Shown piece by piece: positions 1,518 through 43,697 of a stretch of 64,000 nt of DNA; position 1 is the stretch's first letter, and every line of letters starts with the position of its first letter. This stretch comes from Escherichia phage ECML-359. The notes beneath the pieces are model-generated. The model was not told the origin of the DNA. It saw only the letters and a program-made list of their open reading frames with translations, and made no database searches. Where the stretch lies: sequence record OL631482.1, one strand, 5' to 3'. Position numbers and translations under genes: made by a program.

Positions 1518-2111
1518 TTACTTAAGTGAATTGATGTATTCTTCAATGTCAGCGGACGTGGTATCCACACCAACCTGTGGACCTTTGAAGGTTTCAACAC
1601 GCATCAAGGTGTCTTCAATATCAATCTTAGTCAATGCAGCGATTTCAACAACATCATCTGCAGTCGCAATACCCAGGGCAGATACCTTACGGGTTTCGCG
1701 GATGTATTCCAGTTTAACAGCTAGTTCCTGACGAGAATCATCCAGCTCTTTAACTTTCAATTTAATTTCATTACGCATTTCAACATAATCGTCTGCCTTC
1801 TTACGAAGTTGTTTAGCAGTGCGACGATACAGGAGACCCAGTTTAGCATGGACCTGGACATCCGCGCCATCAGCAATCAGTTTGCGGATTTCACGCTCTT
1901 TTGAAGCGGCGAGTTGGTCTTTTTCATTCGCTAACTCGCGGATGCGTTTTTCTTCATTAACAGACTTAACGTGGGCGGTCTGGAGCTCAGTAATCTTGTC
2001 AATCAGGGTAGACGCCGCTTGAGTATATTGGTCTTCAATAGACAGGTTTTTTGCCATTGCAGTACCCAGTTTGGAGCGGATGAATTCAACAAGTTTCTTT
2101 AAAGTATTCAT
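1518..2111 (-). CDS. coiled-coil protein, unknown function (weak PspA/IM30-like heptad pattern)
   Basis: 197-aa ORF, strongly heptad-patterned charged sequence; hairpin terminator downstream at about 1495-1514. Confidence 0.6.
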
Positions 2112-2183
2112 GGTATTTCCTTCAGTTGGTTAATGTTTTATTATCCAGGGAACATACTATCATGTTCCCATTAAAGCACTAAT

Positions 2184-2489
2184 TTAGATTTTGTTTTCCT
2201 GCACACCATAGTAAAGTTCATCAGACACAATATCCAGGATGCGGCGAACATATTCATCATGGTATTGGCAGTCAAAATCAAATGCAACAGTAGTTTCCGC
2301 TTCACGAGTGAATTTAACTTGCACATTCAGGTGATTAACAACGTTAGTTAATTTATCAGTAAAGAACTCTTTTGCTACCGCCTGTTGGACTTGCACTTTA
2401 AACTTGGTGTTACGAATCATATTTTCAGCAGATGCGAAATTACCAGTTTTATCAAAGTCAACAAGCGCCAGGTTGATGATGAATTTCAT
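2184..2489 (-). CDS. hypothetical early protein
   Basis: 101-aa ORF; GGAG RBS; preceded by early-promoter stem-loop cassette 2490-2572. Confidence 0.6.
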   Translation of the reverse strand: MKFIINLALVDFDKTGNFASAENMIRNTKFKVQVQQAVAKEFFTDKLTNVVNHLNVQVKFTREAETTVAFDFDCQYHDEYVRRILDIVSDELYYGVQENKI

Positions 2490-2572
2490 TTTATTCTCCA
2501 GTGTTTTATTTGGTAACTCAGTATGGAATCATTATGCCTTAAAGCAGGGGGCTTGTATACCCCCTTTTTGAA
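2490..2572 (-). promoter_or_regulatory. early promoter with stem-loop and conserved leader
   Basis: hairpin agggggcttgtataccccct; -10 CATAAT; leader shared with copies at 3005-3086, 3513-3600, 41022-41100. Confidence 0.55.
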
Positions 2573-3004
2573 TTAAATTTCAAATTCTTTGCGGAAGTTG
2601 GAAGCATAAGACTGAACTGATGCTTTGTTGAATCCAAACTCACGCACAATCATATCAATAACAGCTCTGCGAGCAGCACCATTAGACATATTAACAGTTT
2701 TGAACATATCATAGCATAAATCTTTGTTGCTCATACCGGAGCGTTTAGGTGCCTTACGTTCAGCTTTAGGAGTAGGTTTAACTTCTGGTTTAACCTGTCC
2801 ATCATTCAGACCTTTAAAAATTTTACCTGCCAGAGTTGCCAGTTTAGCAGCTTCGCCACGAGTGATACCAAATACTGCCGGGTTAAATGAAATACCTTCA
2901 GCTGCCAGACGTTTGAAGAACATACGTGCTGCGGATTGTGCTTCAGCTTCAGAAGAGTTGTTTAATGCCAGCTTAACGTACTTAACCAGTTTTGAAGTTT
3001 TCAT
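2573..3004 (-). CDS. hypothetical early protein with shared C-terminal module
   Basis: 143-aa ORF; C-terminal NGAARRAVIDMIVREFGFNKASVQSYASNFRKEF shared with 3087..3512; own early promoter 3005-3086. Confidence 0.65.
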   Translation of the reverse strand: MKTSKLVKYVKLALNNSSEAEAQSAARMFFKRLAAEGISFNPAVFGITRGEAAKLATLAGKIFKGLNDGQVKPEVKPTPKAERKAPKRSGMSNKDLCYDMFKTVNMSNGAARRAVIDMIVREFGFNKASVQSYASNFRKEFEI

Positions 3005-3086
3005 TTTATTCTCCAGTGTTTTATTTGGTAACTCAGTATGGGATAATTATACACTATCCCACTTGGAAGTAAAACACTTTTCTCAA
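3005..3086 (-). promoter_or_regulatory. early promoter (-35 GTTTTAC, 17-nt spacer, -10 TATAAT) with -10 in the loop of a gggata/tatccc stem-loop
   Basis: minus-strand reading GTTTTACttccaagtgggatagtgTATAATtatccca...GGAG. Confidence 0.6.
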
Positions 3087-3512
3087 TTATTTTTGAGCTT
3101 TGCGGAAGTTGGAAGCATATGACTGAACAACAGTCTTTTTGATATCATGGGTGTTAACCAGAACATCAATCAGGGCGCGGCGAGCTGCACCATCTGCCAT
3201 ATCAATTTCTGCAAATGCCTGGAAGCAAATGTCACGAGCATTACCAGATTTGGACTGGATTTTTTCTTCTTTAACTTCTTCAATTGGGAATTCAATCATT
3301 TCAGCTTGGATTAATTCAATGATAGATTCTTTTGACTGTTTGGTGTTTACCTTCAGTTCAGAATTAAGGGACTTAGCGATGGCAACAATCTGGGTTGAAG
3401 TCAGATGAATAAGTGCATCTTCACGAATGCAGATTTCACATACTTCGTCGGCAACCATTTTGTTAGTGATGCGGGTAACAGAGAATGCAGAAGTCAGGGT
3501 CAGGAAGTTCAT
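3087..3512 (-). CDS. hypothetical early protein with shared C-terminal module
   Basis: ORF track 3087..3593 trimmed to ATG (MNFLTLTS...) with GGAGA RBS; C-terminal DGAARRALIDVLV...VVQSYASNFRKAQK. Confidence 0.6.
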   Translation of the reverse strand: MNFLTLTSAFSVTRITNKMVADEVCEICIREDALIHLTSTQIVAIAKSLNSELKVNTKQSKESIIELIQAEMIEFPIEEVKEEKIQSKSGNARDICFQAFAEIDMADGAARRALIDVLVNTHDIKKTVVQSYASNFRKAQK

Positions 3513-3600
3513 TTTATTTCTCCAAAGTTTTGTTTGATTCAGTGTGTAACTCAGTATGGAATCATTATGCATCCAGTCAATTCGGATGTACACTACTTTT
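3513..3600 (-). promoter_or_regulatory. early promoter (-35 GTGTAC, 17-nt spacer, -10 CATAAT) with conserved leader
   Basis: same leader ccatactgagtta... as neighbouring cassettes. Confidence 0.55.
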
Positions 3601-3617
3601 TGAAGAAATATTAAAAA

Positions 3618-3637
3618 TAAACCCGCCGAAGCGGGTT
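3618..3637 (-). terminator. hairpin terminator
   Basis: aaacccgccgaagcgggttt. Confidence 0.5.
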
Positions 3638-3640
3638 TGA

Positions 3641-4195
3641 TTAGTTCTTATAAAAGCGGAACGGATTTATATGAAAGGCGAGCATAGCCTTAGGGATTGG
3701 TCGGGACAGAAGACTCTTGAGCTTCCAGCCACAATAAACGCGCAGATAAAAGGTGATTCCACCGACCTTGAGATAAGGAACAGAAGCAAAAACACCCCAG
3801 GCATTATCCGTCCACATCCAGAGCCATCCGTGATGAGCTTTATCCGGGGAGCCGGATTCAACATCAGGATTACCTTTATAATGGAATTCTGAATTGCAAT
3901 CACGACCGAGCTTGTGGTAAGCAAAATTGTATGCTTTGTTTCGCCAGAGCCAGGCTACTCGTTGGAAGTAAACACCTAATGGCCATTTTCGGATTTTTGA
4001 CCAACGCTCGACATGACCCCGGTCACCATCAATCGGATTATCATAAGTCATCATCCAATCAAACCCGAACGGAAGTTTACCAGTCTTTTTATTATGGAAT
4101 GGAACTACAAATGGAGCCAGGATAACGGCCAGAATCATGGAGATAAAATCCAGTGGAACTAACAGAATCCAACTCAAATATTTTAACAGTTTCAT
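3641..4195 (-). CDS. membrane-anchored Trp-rich protein, unknown function
   Basis: ORF track 3641..4273 trimmed to ATG (MKLLKYLSWILL...); N-terminal TM helix; hairpin terminators on both sides. Confidence 0.6.
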   Translation of the reverse strand: MKLLKYLSWILLVPLDFISMILAVILAPFVVPFHNKKTGKLPFGFDWMMTYDNPIDGDRGHVERWSKIRKWPLGVYFQRVAWLWRNKAYNFAYHKLGRDCNSEFHYKGNPDVESGSPDKAHHGWLWMWTDNAWGVFASVPYLKVGGITFYLRVYCGWKLKSLLSRPIPKAMLAFHINPFRFYKN

Positions 4196-6565: not shown

Positions 6566-6751
6566 TTACTCACCTTTGGAGATTTTATCCATAACGAAAG
6601 AGATTGAACCAATTAAAAATGCAACTACTAAAGAGATTATATTCTCAGAAGTTGAAAGCATATTCAACATAAAGCCAGCAAACATGCTAAAACCAAAAGC
6701 GGTAACAGCAACAAGGGCAGTAACATTTCTAATTAATTCGCAACGTTTCAT
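6566..6751 (-). CDS. small hydrophobic membrane peptide (61 aa)
   Basis: almost entirely hydrophobic; first gene after early promoter cassette 6752-6808; tightly coupled to downstream ORF. Confidence 0.45.
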   Translation of the reverse strand: MKRCELIRNVTALVAVTAFGFSMFAGFMLNMLSTSENIISLVVAFLIGSISFVMDKISKGE

Positions 6752-6808
6752 TTTATTCTCCTCAGTAGTTGATGGGATAATTATACGCTATCCCATTCAA
6801 AAGTACAC
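6752..6808 (-). promoter_or_regulatory. early promoter in stem-loop (tgggata/tatccca) upstream of 6566..6751
   Basis: -10 TATAAT in loop; -35-like GTGTAC 17 nt upstream. Confidence 0.5.
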
Positions 6809-7063
6809 TTATTTTTTAGGGATACGATAGTAACGCATCTCAACATCTTTCTGCTTGTGCCACTTTTTGATAAGGTCTTCAGAACCTTTAATGGTAACGA
6901 TGTCATAGCGACCATCATGCGATACTTCAGCACTTAACTGCATGAAGTTGTCTAGTGAACGGCGCAATTCCTCATTAGAAAAACTACCACGCGGGGAACC
7001 AACATAAGCAAACTCAACTTTTGCATCTGCGGCTTCGTTAATAAATTCTTGATAAGTTTTCAT
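6809..7063 (-). CDS. internal protein (capsid-targeting leader MKTYQEFINEA)
   Basis: N-terminus matches T4 IP capsid-targeting sequence; 84 aa; own promoter cassette. Confidence 0.75.
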   Translation of the reverse strand: MKTYQEFINEAADAKVEFAYVGSPRGSFSNEELRRSLDNFMQLSAEVSHDGRYDIVTIKGSEDLIKKWHKQKDVEMRYYRIPKK

Positions 7064-39129: not shown

Positions 39130-40689
39130 ATGAAAAAGAATGCATTAGTTCAAAAATGGTCCGCTCTGCTGGAAAACGAAGCTCTTCCGGAAATCGTTGG
39201 TGCTTCTAAACAAGCTATCATCGCTAAAATCTTTGAAAACCAGGAACAAGATATTCTGACCGCTCCTGAATACCGTGACGAAAAAATCTCCGAAGCATTT
39301 GGTTCTTTCCTGACCGAAGCTGAAATCGGTGGTGACCATGGTTATGATGCTACCAATATCGCTGCTGGCCAGACCTCTGGTGCAGTAACTCAGATTGGGC
39401 CGGCAGTTATGGGTATGGTTCGTCGTGCTATCCCGCATCTGATTGCGTTTGATATTTGTGGCGTACAGCCTCTGAACAACCCGACTGGCCAGGTATTTGC
39501 CCTGCGTGCAGTTTACGGTAAAGACCCTGTAGCTGCTGGTGCTAAAGAAGCTTTCCACCCGATGTATGCTCCAAATGCTATGTTCTCTGGTCAGGGCGCT
39601 GCTGAAGCTTTCGAAGCTCTGGCTGCAAGCAAAGTTCTTACCGTTGGTAAAATTTATTCTCACTTCTTCGAAGCAACCGGTGCCGCGCACTTCCAGGCTG
39701 TTGAAGCTGTAACCGTTGATGCTGCTGCTACTGATGCCGCTAAACTTGACGCCGAAGTTACCAAACTGCTCGAAGCTGGTAAGCTGGCCGAAATCGCTGA
39801 AGGTATGGCTACCTCTATCGCCGAATTGCAGGAAGGCTTCAACGGTTCTACTGATAACCCGTGGAACGAAATGGGCTTCCGTATCGATAAACAAGTTATC
39901 GAAGCTAAATCTCGTCAGCTGAAAGCAAGTTACTCCATCGAACTGGCACAGGACCTGCGCGCTGTTCACGGTATGGATGCTGATGCCGAATTGAGTGGTA
40001 TTCTGGCTACCGAAATTATGTTGGAAATCAACCGCGAAGTTATCGATTGGATTAACTACTCCGCACAGGTTGGTAAATCTGGTATGACCAACACCGTTGG
40101 CGCTAAAGCTGGTGTGTTTGACTTCCAGGACCCGATTGATATCCGTGGCGCTCGTTGGGCTGGTGAAAGCTTCAAAGCTTTACTGTTCCAGATTGATAAA
40201 GAAGCCGCTGAAATCGCTCGTCAGACTGGCCGTGGTGCAGGTAACTTCATCATCGCTTCCCGTAACGTAGTTAACGTACTGGCTGCAGTTGATACCTCCG
40301 TATCTTATGCTGCTCAGGGTCTGGGTAAAGGTTTCAACGTTGACACCACTAAAGCTGTGTTCGCTGGTGTTCTGGGTGGCAAATACCGTGTATACATCGA
40401 CCAGTATGCTCGTGCAGACTATTTCACCATCGGTTACAAAGGCGCTAACGAAATGGATGCTGGTATCTACTACGCACCATATGTTGCACTGACCCCGCTG
40501 CGTGGCTCTGACCCGAAAAACTTCCAGCCGGTTATGGGCTTCAAAACCCGTTACGGTATCGGTATTAACCCGTTCGCTGACCCGGTAGCTCAGGCTCCGA
40601 CTAAGCGCATTCAGAACGGCATGCCAGACATCGTTAACAGCCTCGGCTTGAACGGTTACTTCCGCCGCGTATATGTTAAAGGAATTTAA
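39130..40689 (+). CDS. 23: major capsid protein gp23
   Basis: 519 aa; protease-site-containing N-terminal region ...LTEAEIGG; strong codon bias. Confidence 0.95.
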   Translation: MKKNALVQKWSALLENEALPEIVGASKQAIIAKIFENQEQDILTAPEYRDEKISEAFGSFLTEAEIGGDHGYDATNIAAGQTSGAVTQIGPAVMGMVRRAIPHLIAFDICGVQPLNNPTGQVFALRAVYGKDPVAAGAKEAFHPMYAPNAMFSGQGAAEAFEALAASKVLTVGKIYSHFFEATGAAHFQAVEAVTVDAAATDAAKLDAEVTKLLEAGKLAEIAEGMATSIAELQEGFNGSTDNPWNEMGFRIDKQVIEAKSRQLKASYSIELAQDLRAVHGMDADAELSGILATEIMLEINREVIDWINYSAQVGKSGMTNTVGAKAGVFDFQDPIDIRGARWAGESFKALLFQIDKEAAEIARQTGRGAGNFIIASRNVVNVLAAVDTSVSYAAQGLGKGFNVDTTKAVFAGVLGGKYRVYIDQYARADYFTIGYKGANEMDAGIYYAPYVALTPLRGSDPKNFQPVMGFKTRYGIGINPFADPVAQAPTKRIQNGMPDIVNSLGLNGYFRRVYVKGI

Positions 40690-40707: not shown

Positions 40708-40740
40708 AAAAAGGGACCCTTGAGGTCCCTTTCTTGTTTT
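40708..40740. terminator. bidirectional hairpin terminator between gene 23 and the minus-strand 93-aa ORF
   Basis: aaaagggacccttgaggtccctttc flanked by A-run and T-run. Confidence 0.6.
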
Positions 40741-41021
40741 CATACCATACCATTTAAATGAACTTCTACCCGGCGCTTGATGAGGTCTCTGAAGTTAACA
40801 TTGTTTTCTTGAAGTTTCAACCAGTTACCATTTTTATCTTTAGTGTGAGTAGAATAATTACCATTCCACCAGAAATCAGTGTCATATGCTAAGTTTTCAT
40901 ATTTTTTAACTAGTTTGTTCAGAGCATTACCATTAACACCATTTGGGTATTTGTTGACCAATGCAATAACTTCAATTTCCAATTTTTTAAAGGTGTTCAG
41001 AAGGAAAGTTGCTTTGTTCAT
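40740..41021 (-). CDS. hypothetical early protein (93 aa) in the gene 23-24 intergenic slot
   Basis: clean ORF; GGAG RBS; strong early promoter cassette 41022-41100 upstream. Confidence 0.6.
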   Translation of the reverse strand: MNKATFLLNTFKKLEIEVIALVNKYPNGVNGNALNKLVKKYENLAYDTDFWWNGNYSTHTKDKNGNWLKLQENNVNFRDLIKRRVEVHLNGMV

Positions 41022-41100
41022 TTTTAAACTCCAGGTTTTGTTTGTTAACTCAGTATGGAATCATTATGTCTTATCTTAATCTGGTTGTAAACAACTTTTA
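41022..41100 (-). promoter_or_regulatory. early promoter cassette (-35 GTTTAC, 18-nt spacer, -10 CATAAT, conserved leader)
   Basis: leader matches copies at about 2521, 3021 and 3541. Confidence 0.6.
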
Positions 41101-41106
41101 TAAATA
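41099..41106 (+). promoter_or_regulatory. late promoter TATAAATA (gene 24)
   Basis: exact TATAAATA about 25 nt upstream of ATG at 41133. Confidence 0.6.
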
Positions 41107-41132: not shown

Positions 41133-42413
41133 ATGGCAAAGATTAACAAATTACTGCGCGAGTCAACTATTACTACCAGCAACTCCTTGGGCCGCCCGAA
41201 TCTTGTTGCTTTGACCCGCGCTACGACTAAATTGATTTACCGCGATATCATCGCTGAACAACGTACTAACCAACCTGTTGCTGCACTGTATGGTGTTAAA
41301 TATCTTACTCCTGATAACGAATTCAGTTTCCAGACGGGCGCTACTTATGGAGGTGAAGTCGGTTCTAAAGACCGTACAACTATTCCAGAATTAGCTACAG
41401 CCACTCAGCCTGTTGCTAAAGGCGAATATGTAAAATACCAAAATATCGTTTACAAAGCTCTGGTTGATAATCCATTTGCATCGACCACAGAAACAGTGTT
41501 ATCTGATGTTCTGCAAGAAGGTCTTATTGCATCGACTATTCGTTTAGTTCCTGATGCTGCACACACCGAAAAATTCGAAGCTGGTGATGTTGAAATTAGC
41601 AATGCTGTATTCCAGGTTAATAAATGGAATGCTCCGGTTAAAACACGTAAATTGAAAACTGCATTAACTGTTGAACTTGCTCAGGATATGGAAGCAAATG
41701 GTTTTAACGCTCCTGCATTCTTGGAAGACCTGCTTGCCACTATTATGGCAGATGAAATTAACAAAGATGTTCTTCAGTCTCTTATTACCGTTTCCAAGCG
41801 TTATAAAGTAACTGGTGTTTCTGACAATGGCACCATCGATTTAACATACGATGCAGCCCCAGAAGGTGCACGTAAACTGTACGAACTGGTTTGCGAAATG
41901 AACTCCGAAATTCAGAAAACTACATCTTATTCCGGTACCTTTGTTGTTGCCTCTAGCCGTGTTGCTGCTATGTTGGCCGGTTCTGGTTGGTTGAAACACA
42001 GGCCAGAAGACGAACAGTGGCTCCCCGAAACAGCGTACGGTTATTTGATTAATGGCCTCCCTGTATTCTGTGATGTTAACAGTCCATTGGATTATGTAAC
42101 TGTTGGTGTTAAAGAAAATTACGGCGGAAACGAAGTCGTAGGCTCAATTTTCTATGCTCCTTATACCGAAGGCCTGGACTTGGATGATGAAGAGCACGTT
42201 GGTGCGTTTAAGGTCATTGTGGACCCAGACAGCTTGCAGCCATCTATCTCTCTGATGGTTCGTTACGCACTTTCAGCTAACCCGTACACCGTTGCTAAAG
42301 ACGATAAAGAAGCTCGTATTATCGATGCAACCAATATGGATTTAATGGCCGGTCAGAGCAATATGTCTTATCTGCTCGGTGTTAAACTTCCGCCAATCAT
42401 TTATGAGGCGTAA
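41133..42413 (+). CDS. 24: capsid vertex protein gp24
   Basis: MAKINKLLRESTITTSNSLGRPNLVALTRATTKLIY...; 426 aa; gp23-fold vertex protein. Confidence 0.9.
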   Translation: MAKINKLLRESTITTSNSLGRPNLVALTRATTKLIYRDIIAEQRTNQPVAALYGVKYLTPDNEFSFQTGATYGGEVGSKDRTTIPELATATQPVAKGEYVKYQNIVYKALVDNPFASTTETVLSDVLQEGLIASTIRLVPDAAHTEKFEAGDVEISNAVFQVNKWNAPVKTRKLKTALTVELAQDMEANGFNAPAFLEDLLATIMADEINKDVLQSLITVSKRYKVTGVSDNGTIDLTYDAAPEGARKLYELVCEMNSEIQKTTSYSGTFVVASSRVAAMLAGSGWLKHRPEDEQWLPETAYGYLINGLPVFCDVNSPLDYVTVGVKENYGGNEVVGSIFYAPYTEGLDLDDEEHVGAFKVIVDPDSLQPSISLMVRYALSANPYTVAKDDKEARIIDATNMDLMAGQSNMSYLLGVKLPPIIYEA

Positions 42414-43697
42414 ATGCAAAAGATTAATGCACTAATTCACGAATCAACATTAACGGCGGCCAACCAGGTCGCCCGTCCTAATTTGCTTTCTTATACCCAG
42501 GCTACGAATAAACGAATTTTTAAAGCACTCGTGGCCGAACAGAAAACTACCCAGCCTGTTGCAGCCCTGTATGGTGTTCGTGTTCTGAACCCAGATGATA
42601 AAATGACTTATCTCGGTGGAGCAACATTTGCAGGTCAGATTGGTATGTTCGAGCGTAAGAATATTCCAGAATTTACAAACAAAGACGAAGCTTATGCAGT
42701 CGGCGATATGTTCCAGTTTGAAAGTGTTGTGTTCAAAGTTTTGGAAGCATCCCCATTCGCCGGTACACTCGAAACTGATTTAGGTGAAGTTATTTCTGAA
42801 GCCATTGCTGCTGGGCATATAAGAATGATGTCAGATGCTGCTTTCACTGATAAATTTGAAAAGGGGCATCCTGAAATTGCTGAAGCTGGTTTTCGTATCG
42901 ATAAATGGCAGACTGAAGTTAAATCCAGAAAGTTGAAAACTTCTTTAACTGTCGAGCTTGCCCAGGACCTGGAAGCAAACGGTTTTGATGCAACAGACTT
43001 CATCGATAATATTCTCGGCATTCAAATGGCAGAGGAAATTAATAAGGATGTACTGCAATCTCTTATTACTGTTAGTTCCCGTTTCAAGGTGCAAGGTGTT
43101 TCTGAAAAAGGTGTATTGAATCTTACTGACCCGAAATATGATAACGCACAGGACCGCGCACGAACCCTGTATTATTATATGTGTGAAATGAATTCTGCAG
43201 TTCAACGTCAGACTTCGTTTGCTGGTACATATGCAGTTGCTTCTTCCCGTTGTGCAGCTATTTTAGCCGCTTCTGGCTGGGTTGAGAAAAAGGAAGACCA
43301 GGATGAATTGGCCTATGGTGTTCTGAAGAACGGTTTGCCTCTTTACGCTGATATGAATAGTCCATGCGATTATGTTATTGTTGGTGTAAATGCAGATATG
43401 GGTGAAGGTCAGACGGTCGCATCTTTATATTATGCGCCTTATACGGAAGGACTTAGCGAAGTTGATGATGAGGGGGATACCTCGGTTGGGGAATTCAAGG
43501 TTATTGTTGACCCTGAAAGCTTACAGCCTACGGTTGCACTGTTAGCTCGTTATGCTTTGACTGCAAACCCTTACACCGTTGCTAAAGATGATAAAGAAGC
43601 TCGCCTTATTGATGGAGCTGATATGGATAAGATGGCTAACCAAAGCCAATTGAGTTCTTATCTTGGCGTTAAACTTCCACCGCTGGAAAAAGAATAA
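42414..43697 (+). CDS. capsid vertex protein gp24 paralog (diverged second copy)
   Basis: 427 aa colinear with preceding gene; roughly 55-60% identical by eye over the N-terminal 60 residues. Confidence 0.85.
   Translation: MQKINALIHESTLTAANQVARPNLLSYTQATNKRIFKALVAEQKTTQPVAALYGVRVLNPDDKMTYLGGATFAGQIGMFERKNIPEFTNKDEAYAVGDMFQFESVVFKVLEASPFAGTLETDLGEVISEAIAAGHIRMMSDAAFTDKFEKGHPEIAEAGFRIDKWQTEVKSRKLKTSLTVELAQDLEANGFDATDFIDNILGIQMAEEINKDVLQSLITVSSRFKVQGVSEKGVLNLTDPKYDNAQDRARTLYYYMCEMNSAVQRQTSFAGTYAVASSRCAAILAASGWVEKKEDQDELAYGVLKNGLPLYADMNSPCDYVIVGVNADMGEGQTVASLYYAPYTEGLSEVDDEGDTSVGEFKVIVDPESLQPTVALLARYALTANPYTVAKDDKEARLIDGADMDKMANQSQLSSYLGVKLPPLEKE

Follow-up and report, generated by a model that had tools for sequence, protein, structure and literature searches.

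Bacteriophage T4 makes small early proteins for host takeover and accessory functions, among them AsiA, Alc, Ndd, Arn and MotB. Genomes of T4-type phages contain promoter-early stem-loop (PeSL) cassettes that recombine (Arbiol 2010, PMC2839356; Comeau 2014, PMC4122927); in T4 and PST the consensus of their early promoter is TTTACW-N17-TAYWAT (PMC4122927). In T4 the gap between capsid genes 23 and 24 is occupied by segD, the sole homing endonuclease gene of this phage that is antisense to its neighbours, and according to a 2010 review no promoter specific to segD had been found (PMC2988022). The segD RNA falls into the early class in T4 omics data, and the SegD protein has been detected (PMC9697503 supplement). 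Here we analyse the same gap in a stretch of 64,000 nucleotides (nt) from Escherichia phage ECML-359 (sequence record OL631482.1), hereafter the window. The gap contains a minus-strand open reading frame (ORF) of 93 amino acids (aa), preceded by a candidate early promoter with a leader that recurs elsewhere in the window.

A sequence-only reading of this DNA had placed the ORF correctly, down to its translation, and had rightly noted that segD takes this slot in T4. It had further proposed that a copy of an early-region promoter cassette carried the ORF as a payload into the late capsid operon, and this is not borne out by the comparison of genomes. We consider it fairly probable that the ORF is a real gene of accessory, non-essential character and a long-term occupant of the antisense 23/24 slot, and that its product is made early and acts by binding.

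Coding status and distribution of the ORF

By sequence similarity, the window belongs to a VR7/SP18-type relative of T4 in Gaprivervirus (Tevenvirinae, Straboviridae). Over the 600 bases around the ORF, identity is 99.8% with Yersinia phage vB_YenM_P8 and 90-99% with VR7, VR20, VR25, VR26 and SP18. The ORF product matches the phrog_6003 hidden Markov model (HMM) with E 8.9e-47, residues 1-90 falling on profile positions 1-90 of 90, and the gene of this family is carried by 237 phage records. It is the same gene as the hypothetical proteins VR7ORF190c, JS98 ORF173c and RB69ORF188c/RB69ORF189c of T4-like phages, and in JS98 and ST0 it again lies antisense in the 23/24 slot. Six GenBank phages have exactly this product (100% identity), and across Gaprivervirus the identity is 91-99%. 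Two more specific database labels were rejected: "glycosyl hydrolase family 25" for the ORF of phage EAWsc9 is unsupported by any search, and the JGI name "curcumin reductase" for the homolog in the metagenomic lineage P0017 is likewise without support.

The substitution pattern indicates that the ORF is a genuine protein-coding gene under purifying selection, in agreement with the sequence-only reading. The Nei-Gojobori dN/dS ratio is 0.19-0.28 against VR7, VR25 and VR26, and 0.08-0.14 in other close pairs. Against JS98 the proportion of differing non-synonymous sites is 0.245, and that of synonymous sites is 0.75, that is, saturated. The latter value is close to that of the neighbouring gp24 (0.61), so that allelic replacement of the ORF need not be invoked. 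At non-synonymous sites the ORF has diverged 4-12 times as much as gp24 and gp23 in the same comparison.

Absence or disruption of the ORF in relatives with conserved flanks had been named in advance as the outcome that would speak against the gene. Disruption was encountered in the distant RB69 only, whereas the ORF is intact in all 31 records that are at least 90% identical. In the RB69 reference (NC_004928, 109291-109531) two frameshifts cut the homolog into RB69ORF188c and RB69ORF189c, and the copy of Mosigvirus ST0 is intact; the split copy is either a pseudogene or the product of old sequencing errors. Truncated forms exist in some other phages (our P0020 and P0021). The ORF is not present in T4, Karamvirus and Jiaodavirus.

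Antisense orthologs occupy the 23/24 gap of Dhakavirus JS98 (61% identical in aa sequence), of Mosigvirus ST0 (36%) and of two metagenomic T4-like lineages, P0011 (55%) and P0017 (30%); the same slot and orientation were observed in VR7, VR25, VR26 and Dhakavirus phage 04086. These comparisons largely show that the ORF is a long-standing resident of the slot in several T4-like groups and not a recent insertion. Jiaodavirus KpV477 and Karamvirus CC31 have a 23/24 gap of just 82-86 nt, in which the gene 24 late promoter is directly adjacent to the terminator hairpin of gene 23; neither an antisense early promoter nor a gene was found there. Since the slot is empty of both promoter and gene in these two groups, a much older gain of the promoter-plus-gene unit may have occurred, and on this deeper time scale the unit behaves as an indel.

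Probable early promoter, leader and the relation to segD

Immediately upstream of the ORF is a candidate sigma70-type promoter, as the sequence-only reading had noticed: GTTTAC at 41092-41087 (or TTTACA at 41091-41086), a spacer of 18 or 17 nt depending on the choice of hexamer, and CATAAT. Ten of its 12 positions agree with sigma70, and ATAAAAG is situated just upstream of the -35 box. Its GTTTACA, 17-nt spacer, CATAAT and A-rich upstream stretch are those of T4-type early promoters. The early pattern T[TG]TAC[AT]-N16-18-[TC]A[TCA][AT]AT has seven hits in the window, all on the minus strand (57799, 41091, 8393, 6807, 3592, 3073 and 2215), most of them followed by an initial transcribed region (G/T)(A/T)T(T/C)CC and a GGAG ribosome site. 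The promoter is credible because of its position just upstream of the ORF, its conservation across genera, its membership in a repeated cassette and the common strand of the seven hits. It probably drives the ORF.

T4 late promoters require only TATAAATA. The alignment of upstream regions shows that the 5' region of gene 24, with its late promoter and the element TTGTTTACA, is conserved in the window, VR7, VR25, VR26, JS98, 04086 and ST0. T4 has kept the same regions in front of segD, with TTATTTACA as its form of the element. The -35 hexamer TTTACA is thus invariant across four genera although a late promoter does not need it, which argues for a functional early promoter. No TATAAATA occurs on the strand of the ORF itself. 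The early promoter had been said to overlap the gene 24 late promoter; this holds for the polymerase footprints, but not for the hexamers, as 7 nt separate TATAAATA from the -35 hexamer. In RB69, the equivalent divergent pair, consisting of an early promoter Pe:109605(-) for the ortholog of the ORF and a late promoter Pl:109573(+), was predicted with HMMs in 2006 (PMC1524935 supplement), and thus the divergent architecture is not new. The early-class RNA of T4 segD, a gene situated behind the homologous promoter region, gives the early promoter indirect support.

The leader is nearly identical to leaders of early genes about 38 kb away, as had been observed previously from the sequence: the matches are at 2503-2541 (36/39 positions, E 4e-10), 3547-3569 (23/23) and 3018-3050 (29/33), all on the minus strand. 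When the four copies were combined into a profile, it recovered them at E 1e-21 to 1e-25, with a weak fifth copy near 6742-6817. Gaprivervirus genomes contain 5-12 copies of this leader. The leader of the JS98 type occurs in 286 records overall, with up to five copies per genome in some and one copy in several. The leader sequence is lineage-specific: from the -10 box to the ribosome site, JS98 and ST0 have TACTATAGAC(C/T)TATCAA, and all Gapriverviruses have CATAATGATT(C/T)CATACTGAGTTA, which is the sequence repeated at 2.5-3.6 kb.

These repeats resemble PeSL cassettes in being multi-copy composites of a sigma70-type early promoter, a ribosome site and a start codon, which precede unrelated small ORFs of hyperplastic regions. 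The four copies in the window are nearly identical and stand before unrelated variable ORFs, none of the other three downstream ORFs being related to the 93-aa ORF; in close relatives, 49-100% of the region 1900-3800 is covered, often by several matching places per genome. Unlike PeSL cassettes, the 23/24 copy is in a conserved structural block and has no upstream stem-loop (the best fold has -5.2 kcal/mol, z -0.98, versus -14.3 kcal/mol, z -4.2 for the copy at 3586-3640). Moreover, it is cassette-like only between the -10 box and the ribosome site, whereas its -35 half is slot-specific and conserved across genera: the likeness to the early-region copies is limited to a patch of about 45 nt from around the -10 box (~-17) to the ribosome site. 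The 23/24 copy therefore resembles a conversion patch and not a whole transposed cassette.

Taken with the synteny of the orthologs and the conserved -35 box, the limited extent of the match suggests that the leader was converted and the gene was not delivered. In the simplest history, the downstream half of a resident promoter was overwritten by the early leader of the genus itself. Recombination between cassette copies is inferred here from the lineage-specific leader patch. Such a patch over a resident promoter in a structural block would extend the idea of PeSL recombination beyond hyperplastic regions.

The transcript would end at a hairpin that was predicted by folding and is common to the ORF and gene 23; the sequence-only reading had already taken it for a bidirectional terminator bounding the unit. 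Its minus-strand form has 12 base pairs and -17 kcal/mol (z -4.0), with UUUUUAUUU behind it; for the plus strand the values are -15.9 kcal/mol and z -3.3, with a weaker U-run. The hairpin is retained in JS98, ST0 and T4, and two of its stem pairs have compensatory changes. A possible leader hairpin, in which the 5' GAUUCCA would pair with the ribosome site, is not significant (z -1.1).

The consensus of sites cleaved by the RegB/S1 system is GGAGRAYARAA (PMC1702504). The ribosome sites of the 2.5- and 3.0-kb copies (2490-2500 and 3005-3015, minus strand) both read GGAGAATAAAA, which agrees with this consensus in 11 of 11 positions and is exactly the optimal T4 site. Together with the GGAG and A-rich tail of the ORF leader, GGAGTTTAAAA, this suggests that the ORF mRNA may be inactivated by RegB/S1 after the early period.

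The locus is similar to that of T4 segD in its slot and antisense orientation in the homologous upstream DNA, which in T4 contains TTTACA-17-TATTAT and a divergent gene 24 late promoter, and in a homologous terminator hairpin. The difference is in the cargo, as the two proteins are unrelated. PST, like T4, has segD antisense in the slot and lacks the ORF. Dhakavirus phage 04086 has both genes in tandem: in the 735-nt gap before gene 23, which is empty in the record, we observed an unannotated GIY-YIG ORF of 223 aa (OR842557.1, 107790-108461), 57% identical to T4 SegD, which starts 4 nt after the stop codon of the ORF homolog on the same strand. From this tandem, SegD appears to insert downstream of the ORF and to use the promoter of the latter, and Tequatrovirus appears to have kept only segD. 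TTTACA-17-TATTAT is a candidate for the missing segD promoter, which searches in T4 had not found. Far from being an oddity of T4, the 23/24 gap would then be a place kept for early cargo on the antisense strand, with one promoter common to unrelated cargos.

The predicted protein and its possible role

AlphaFold2, run on a 19-sequence alignment, predicts a compact fold with high confidence (predicted local distance difference test 94.1, predicted template modelling (TM) score 0.81). It consists of helices 3-24, 31-48 and 77-90 and a beta-hairpin 52-61/67-71. M1, K3, F6, N30, G31, N32, A45 and Q71 are invariant, and L14, L21 and N35 nearly so. No histidine, cysteine, aspartate, glutamate or serine is invariant, and no typical catalytic residue is conserved; the conserved hydrophobic residues are spaced as in a core, and the conserved polar ones form an Asn-rich loop and a helix cap. 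The protein is hydrophilic, without a hydrophobic segment, and the isoelectric point (pI) is 9.2-10.1 in 18 of the 19 family members.

A sequence-profile search of PDB returned only de novo designed three-helix bundles with E above 0.02. A Foldseek search of BFVD yielded only a family member (TM 0.86-0.90) and no structural relative outside the family. The distribution of the family is very narrow, with nine representatives among 1.84 billion clusters. Two of the nine were rejected, the long repeat proteins P0025 (nine partial stretches) and P0026 (Big-like repeats), whose partial matches in the exhaustive HMM search cover the NGN-helix segment and are inflated by repeats. The homolog of rV5-like phages is found within arrays of small same-strand ORFs, a T7 0.6-like gene among them, and scans upstream of these homologs gave promoter matches within chance expectation.

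The compact fold, the lack of catalytic residues, the basic character, the fast evolution and the variable presence together suggest a dispensable, early-made accessory protein of the binding type. In its likely mode of action, though not as a family member, it would be comparable to T4 AsiA, Alc, Ndd, Arn and MotB, which are likewise proteins of about 10 kDa with early promoters and no enzymatic motifs, dispensable in the laboratory and variably present among relatives. It differs from them in its location, in a late structural block instead of an early cluster, and has no sequence or fold likeness to characterised proteins.

The following scheme is consistent with these observations. Host sigma70 RNA polymerase, still unmodified, would start at TTTACA-17-CATAAT within the first minutes of infection and produce a monocistronic mRNA of about 330 nt with the GGAG ribosome site. 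Transcription would stop at the hairpin that also terminates gene 23, and so would not run antisense into the capsid gene. The GGAG with its A-rich tail is a plausible RegB/S1 substrate, and cleavage would limit expression to early infection; at late times, this intergenic DNA would serve the divergent gp55-dependent promoter of gene 24. As to the origin of the locus, it is largely shown that Gaprivervirus, Dhakavirus and Mosigvirus have inherited both promoter and gene from their ancestor. In the first of these genera, the stretch running from the -10 box to the ribosome site would have been replaced, through recombination or gene conversion, by the multi-copy early leader of the PeSL type, and SegD homing endonucleases would insert just downstream of the ORF under the same promoter, as in 04086; in Tequatrovirus segD alone is left behind the homologous promoter. 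In the last and weakest step, the soluble basic protein of about 10 kDa would bind a host (or phage) macromolecule stoichiometrically early in infection. Such binding would make it a host-takeover or counter-defence effector in an arms race.

Several observations weigh against an early-made binding protein of this kind. The -10 box starts with C, whereas the T4/PST consensus is TAYWAT, and the sigma70 match by itself is not above chance in such AT-rich DNA (two sites in a simple scan versus 2.7 +/- 1.6 in shuffled sequences). The exact promoter pattern occurs once in the window, and at least one match is seen in 26 of 100 shuffles. The tail of the ribosome site agrees with the RegB/S1 consensus in 9 of 11 positions only, and regB was not found in the 64,000 nt of the window. 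The early segD RNA of T4 could stem from read-through from rnlB/24.2 promoters. The comparison of slots is compatible with either a filled or an empty ancestral state. Pfam, NCBIfam and PADLOC gave no match for the ORF, so that the functional assignment leans on negative evidence; Foldseek found nothing in PDB at E 0.001 or better, and the consistently basic pI fits binding to nucleic acids as well as to proteins. Finally, a search of the literature found no transcriptome or functional study of any phage carrying the ORF.

Among other explanations, it is unlikely that a mobile early promoter cassette from the hyperplastic region recently brought the ORF into the 23/24 gap, although there are arguments for it. 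The leader is 92-100% identical over 23-39 nt to the three copies at 2.5-3.6 kb, cassettes of this type are multi-copy and adjoin variable ORFs, PeSL-mediated insertion has been published (PMC2839356; PMC4122927), and the slot is empty in Karamvirus and Jiaodavirus, so that the unit does behave as an indel in deep time. However, at least five lineages, JS98, ST0 and both metagenomic ones among them, have an ortholog in the same position, with identity as low as about 30%, and the synonymous divergence of the gene is comparable to that of gp24. The -35 box and the DNA upstream of it are common to JS98 and ST0, which have another leader, and to T4 segD; likeness to the early region is restricted to the patch between about -17 and the ribosome site, and the upstream stem-loop is missing. 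We regard it as extremely improbable that the ORF is what decay has left of a Seg-type homing endonuclease, or an accessory subunit of one, such as its DNA-binding part or a homing helper. The sequence-only reading had allowed for a remnant while correctly reporting that the ORF has no GIY-YIG motif, and indeed no Pfam family was detected even at E up to 10. Alignment of the family profile with T4 SegD by hhalign gave a probability of 0.6%, with no homology to any part of SegD, the DNA-binding C-terminus included. The basic protein, the slot and orientation shared with T4 segD, and the probable co-transcription with the adjoining SegD homolog in 04086 would fit such an origin. But in 04086 the ORF coexists with an intact SegD homolog, and this is the only such pair among the contexts examined: the ORF is alone in JS98, ST0, VR7, VR25, VR26 and the two metagenomic slots, SegD is alone in T4 and PST, and the rV5-like homologs do not adjoin endonucleases.

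The remaining two alternatives concern the neighbouring genes. We find it distinctly unlikely that the RNA or the act of transcription is what matters, by tuning the gene 24 late promoter or the gene 23 terminator. The footprint of the early promoter does overlap the late promoter, and the arrangement is kept despite the change of cargo, segD in T4 and the ORF elsewhere; on the other hand, purifying selection on the protein is clear and the predicted fold is confident, the transcript runs away from gene 24 and ends before it reaches gene 23, being antisense to neither, and genera with an empty slot express genes 23 and 24 without it. The strict linkage to these genes across long evolutionary distances, and the duplicated gp24 of several carriers, could also point to a capsid-related factor, for instance a gp23/gp24 assembly chaperone or regulator, kept there by functional linkage. 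This is very improbable given the opposite strand, the early-type promoter and the lack of TATAAATA on the ORF strand. In Mosigvirus ST0 the ORF occurs beside only one gp24; T4, Karamvirus and Jiaodavirus form heads although they lack the ORF; it is disrupted in the viable RB69; and its distant homologs are found among early-type small ORFs and not among head genes.

Within the reading that we prefer, an early accessory protein acting by binding, there is room for a bolder proposal, which is a long shot: the previously unseen fold may be an early inhibitor of a host factor. In its most interesting version the protein would counter a defence system that senses the major capsid or vertex protein. 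If so, the counter-defence protein would stay linked to genes 23 and 24 and be made before the capsid trigger appears. The modest version would take TTTACA-17-TATTAT as the segD promoter and the 23/24 gap as a fixed early site with swapped cargo.

The ORF itself is an ordinary T4-type feature, a small fast-evolving early gene that is already annotated in more than 200 phages. PeSL-type cassettes are known, and many genomes already list the ORF as a hypothetical protein. The points of use that are added here are the early slot that the ORF appears to have in common with segD, the tandem of ORF and segD in 04086, the candidate conversion of the leader patch in Gaprivervirus and the predicted fold without relatives. 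With its compact, confidently predicted fold, for which no relative is known, and its very narrow distribution, the protein is a tractable target in the search for new host-takeover or anti-defence activities.

Features of the locus and neighbouring genes

The positions of the features are collected in Table 1.

Table 1. Features of the 23/24 slot and of the paralogous leader cassettes, in window coordinates.
Feature	Position	Strand	Basis or remark
Gene 23, major capsid protein	39130..40689	+	flank of the slot
Bidirectional intrinsic terminator hairpin, common to gene 23 (+) and the ORF (-)	40708..40734	.	folding, conservation
93-aa coding sequence (phrog_6003; ortholog of VR7ORF190c and JS98 ORF173c)	40740..41021	-	ATG start
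Leader, from after the -10 hexamer to the start codon	41022..41062	-	with the -10 box, the segment common to three early-region copies
Shine-Dalgarno GGAG	41029..41032	-	7 nt before ATG
-10 hexamer CATAAT	41063..41068	-	promoter scan
-35 element GTTTACA	41086..41092	-	TTTACA invariant in the window, VR7/25/26, JS98, 04086, ST0 and T4 upstream of segD
Gene 24 late promoter TATAAATA	41099..41106	+	divergent from the early promoter, in its UP-element zone
Gene 24(1), capsid vertex protein	41133..42413	+	flank of the slot
Second gene 24 paralog	42414-43697	+	in tandem with gene 24(1)
Paralogous early promoter/leader cassette	2484..2582	-	precedes unrelated 101-aa ORF (2184-2489)
Paralogous early promoter/leader cassette	2999..3096	-	precedes unrelated 143-aa ORF (2573-3004)
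Paralogous cassette with upstream terminator-like hairpin (canonical PeSL form)	3507..3640	-	precedes 141-aa ORF (3087-3512)

The two copies of gene 24 are followed by rnlB on the minus strand. The tandem gene 24 pair was also observed in JS98 and in two metagenomic lineages; T4, RB69/ST0, CC31 and KpV477 have a single gene 24.

The 143-aa and 141-aa ORFs behind two of the early-region cassettes (both on the minus strand) are paralogous in their C-terminal 58 residues, with 48% identity. This likeness suggests a local duplication along with the cassette. A weaker match to the Gaprivervirus leader (83%) was found in Morganella phage vB_MmoM_MP1 (KX078569, 61313-61364), under a "promoter" annotated by the depositors; the leader type therefore reaches a distant member of Tevenvirinae.

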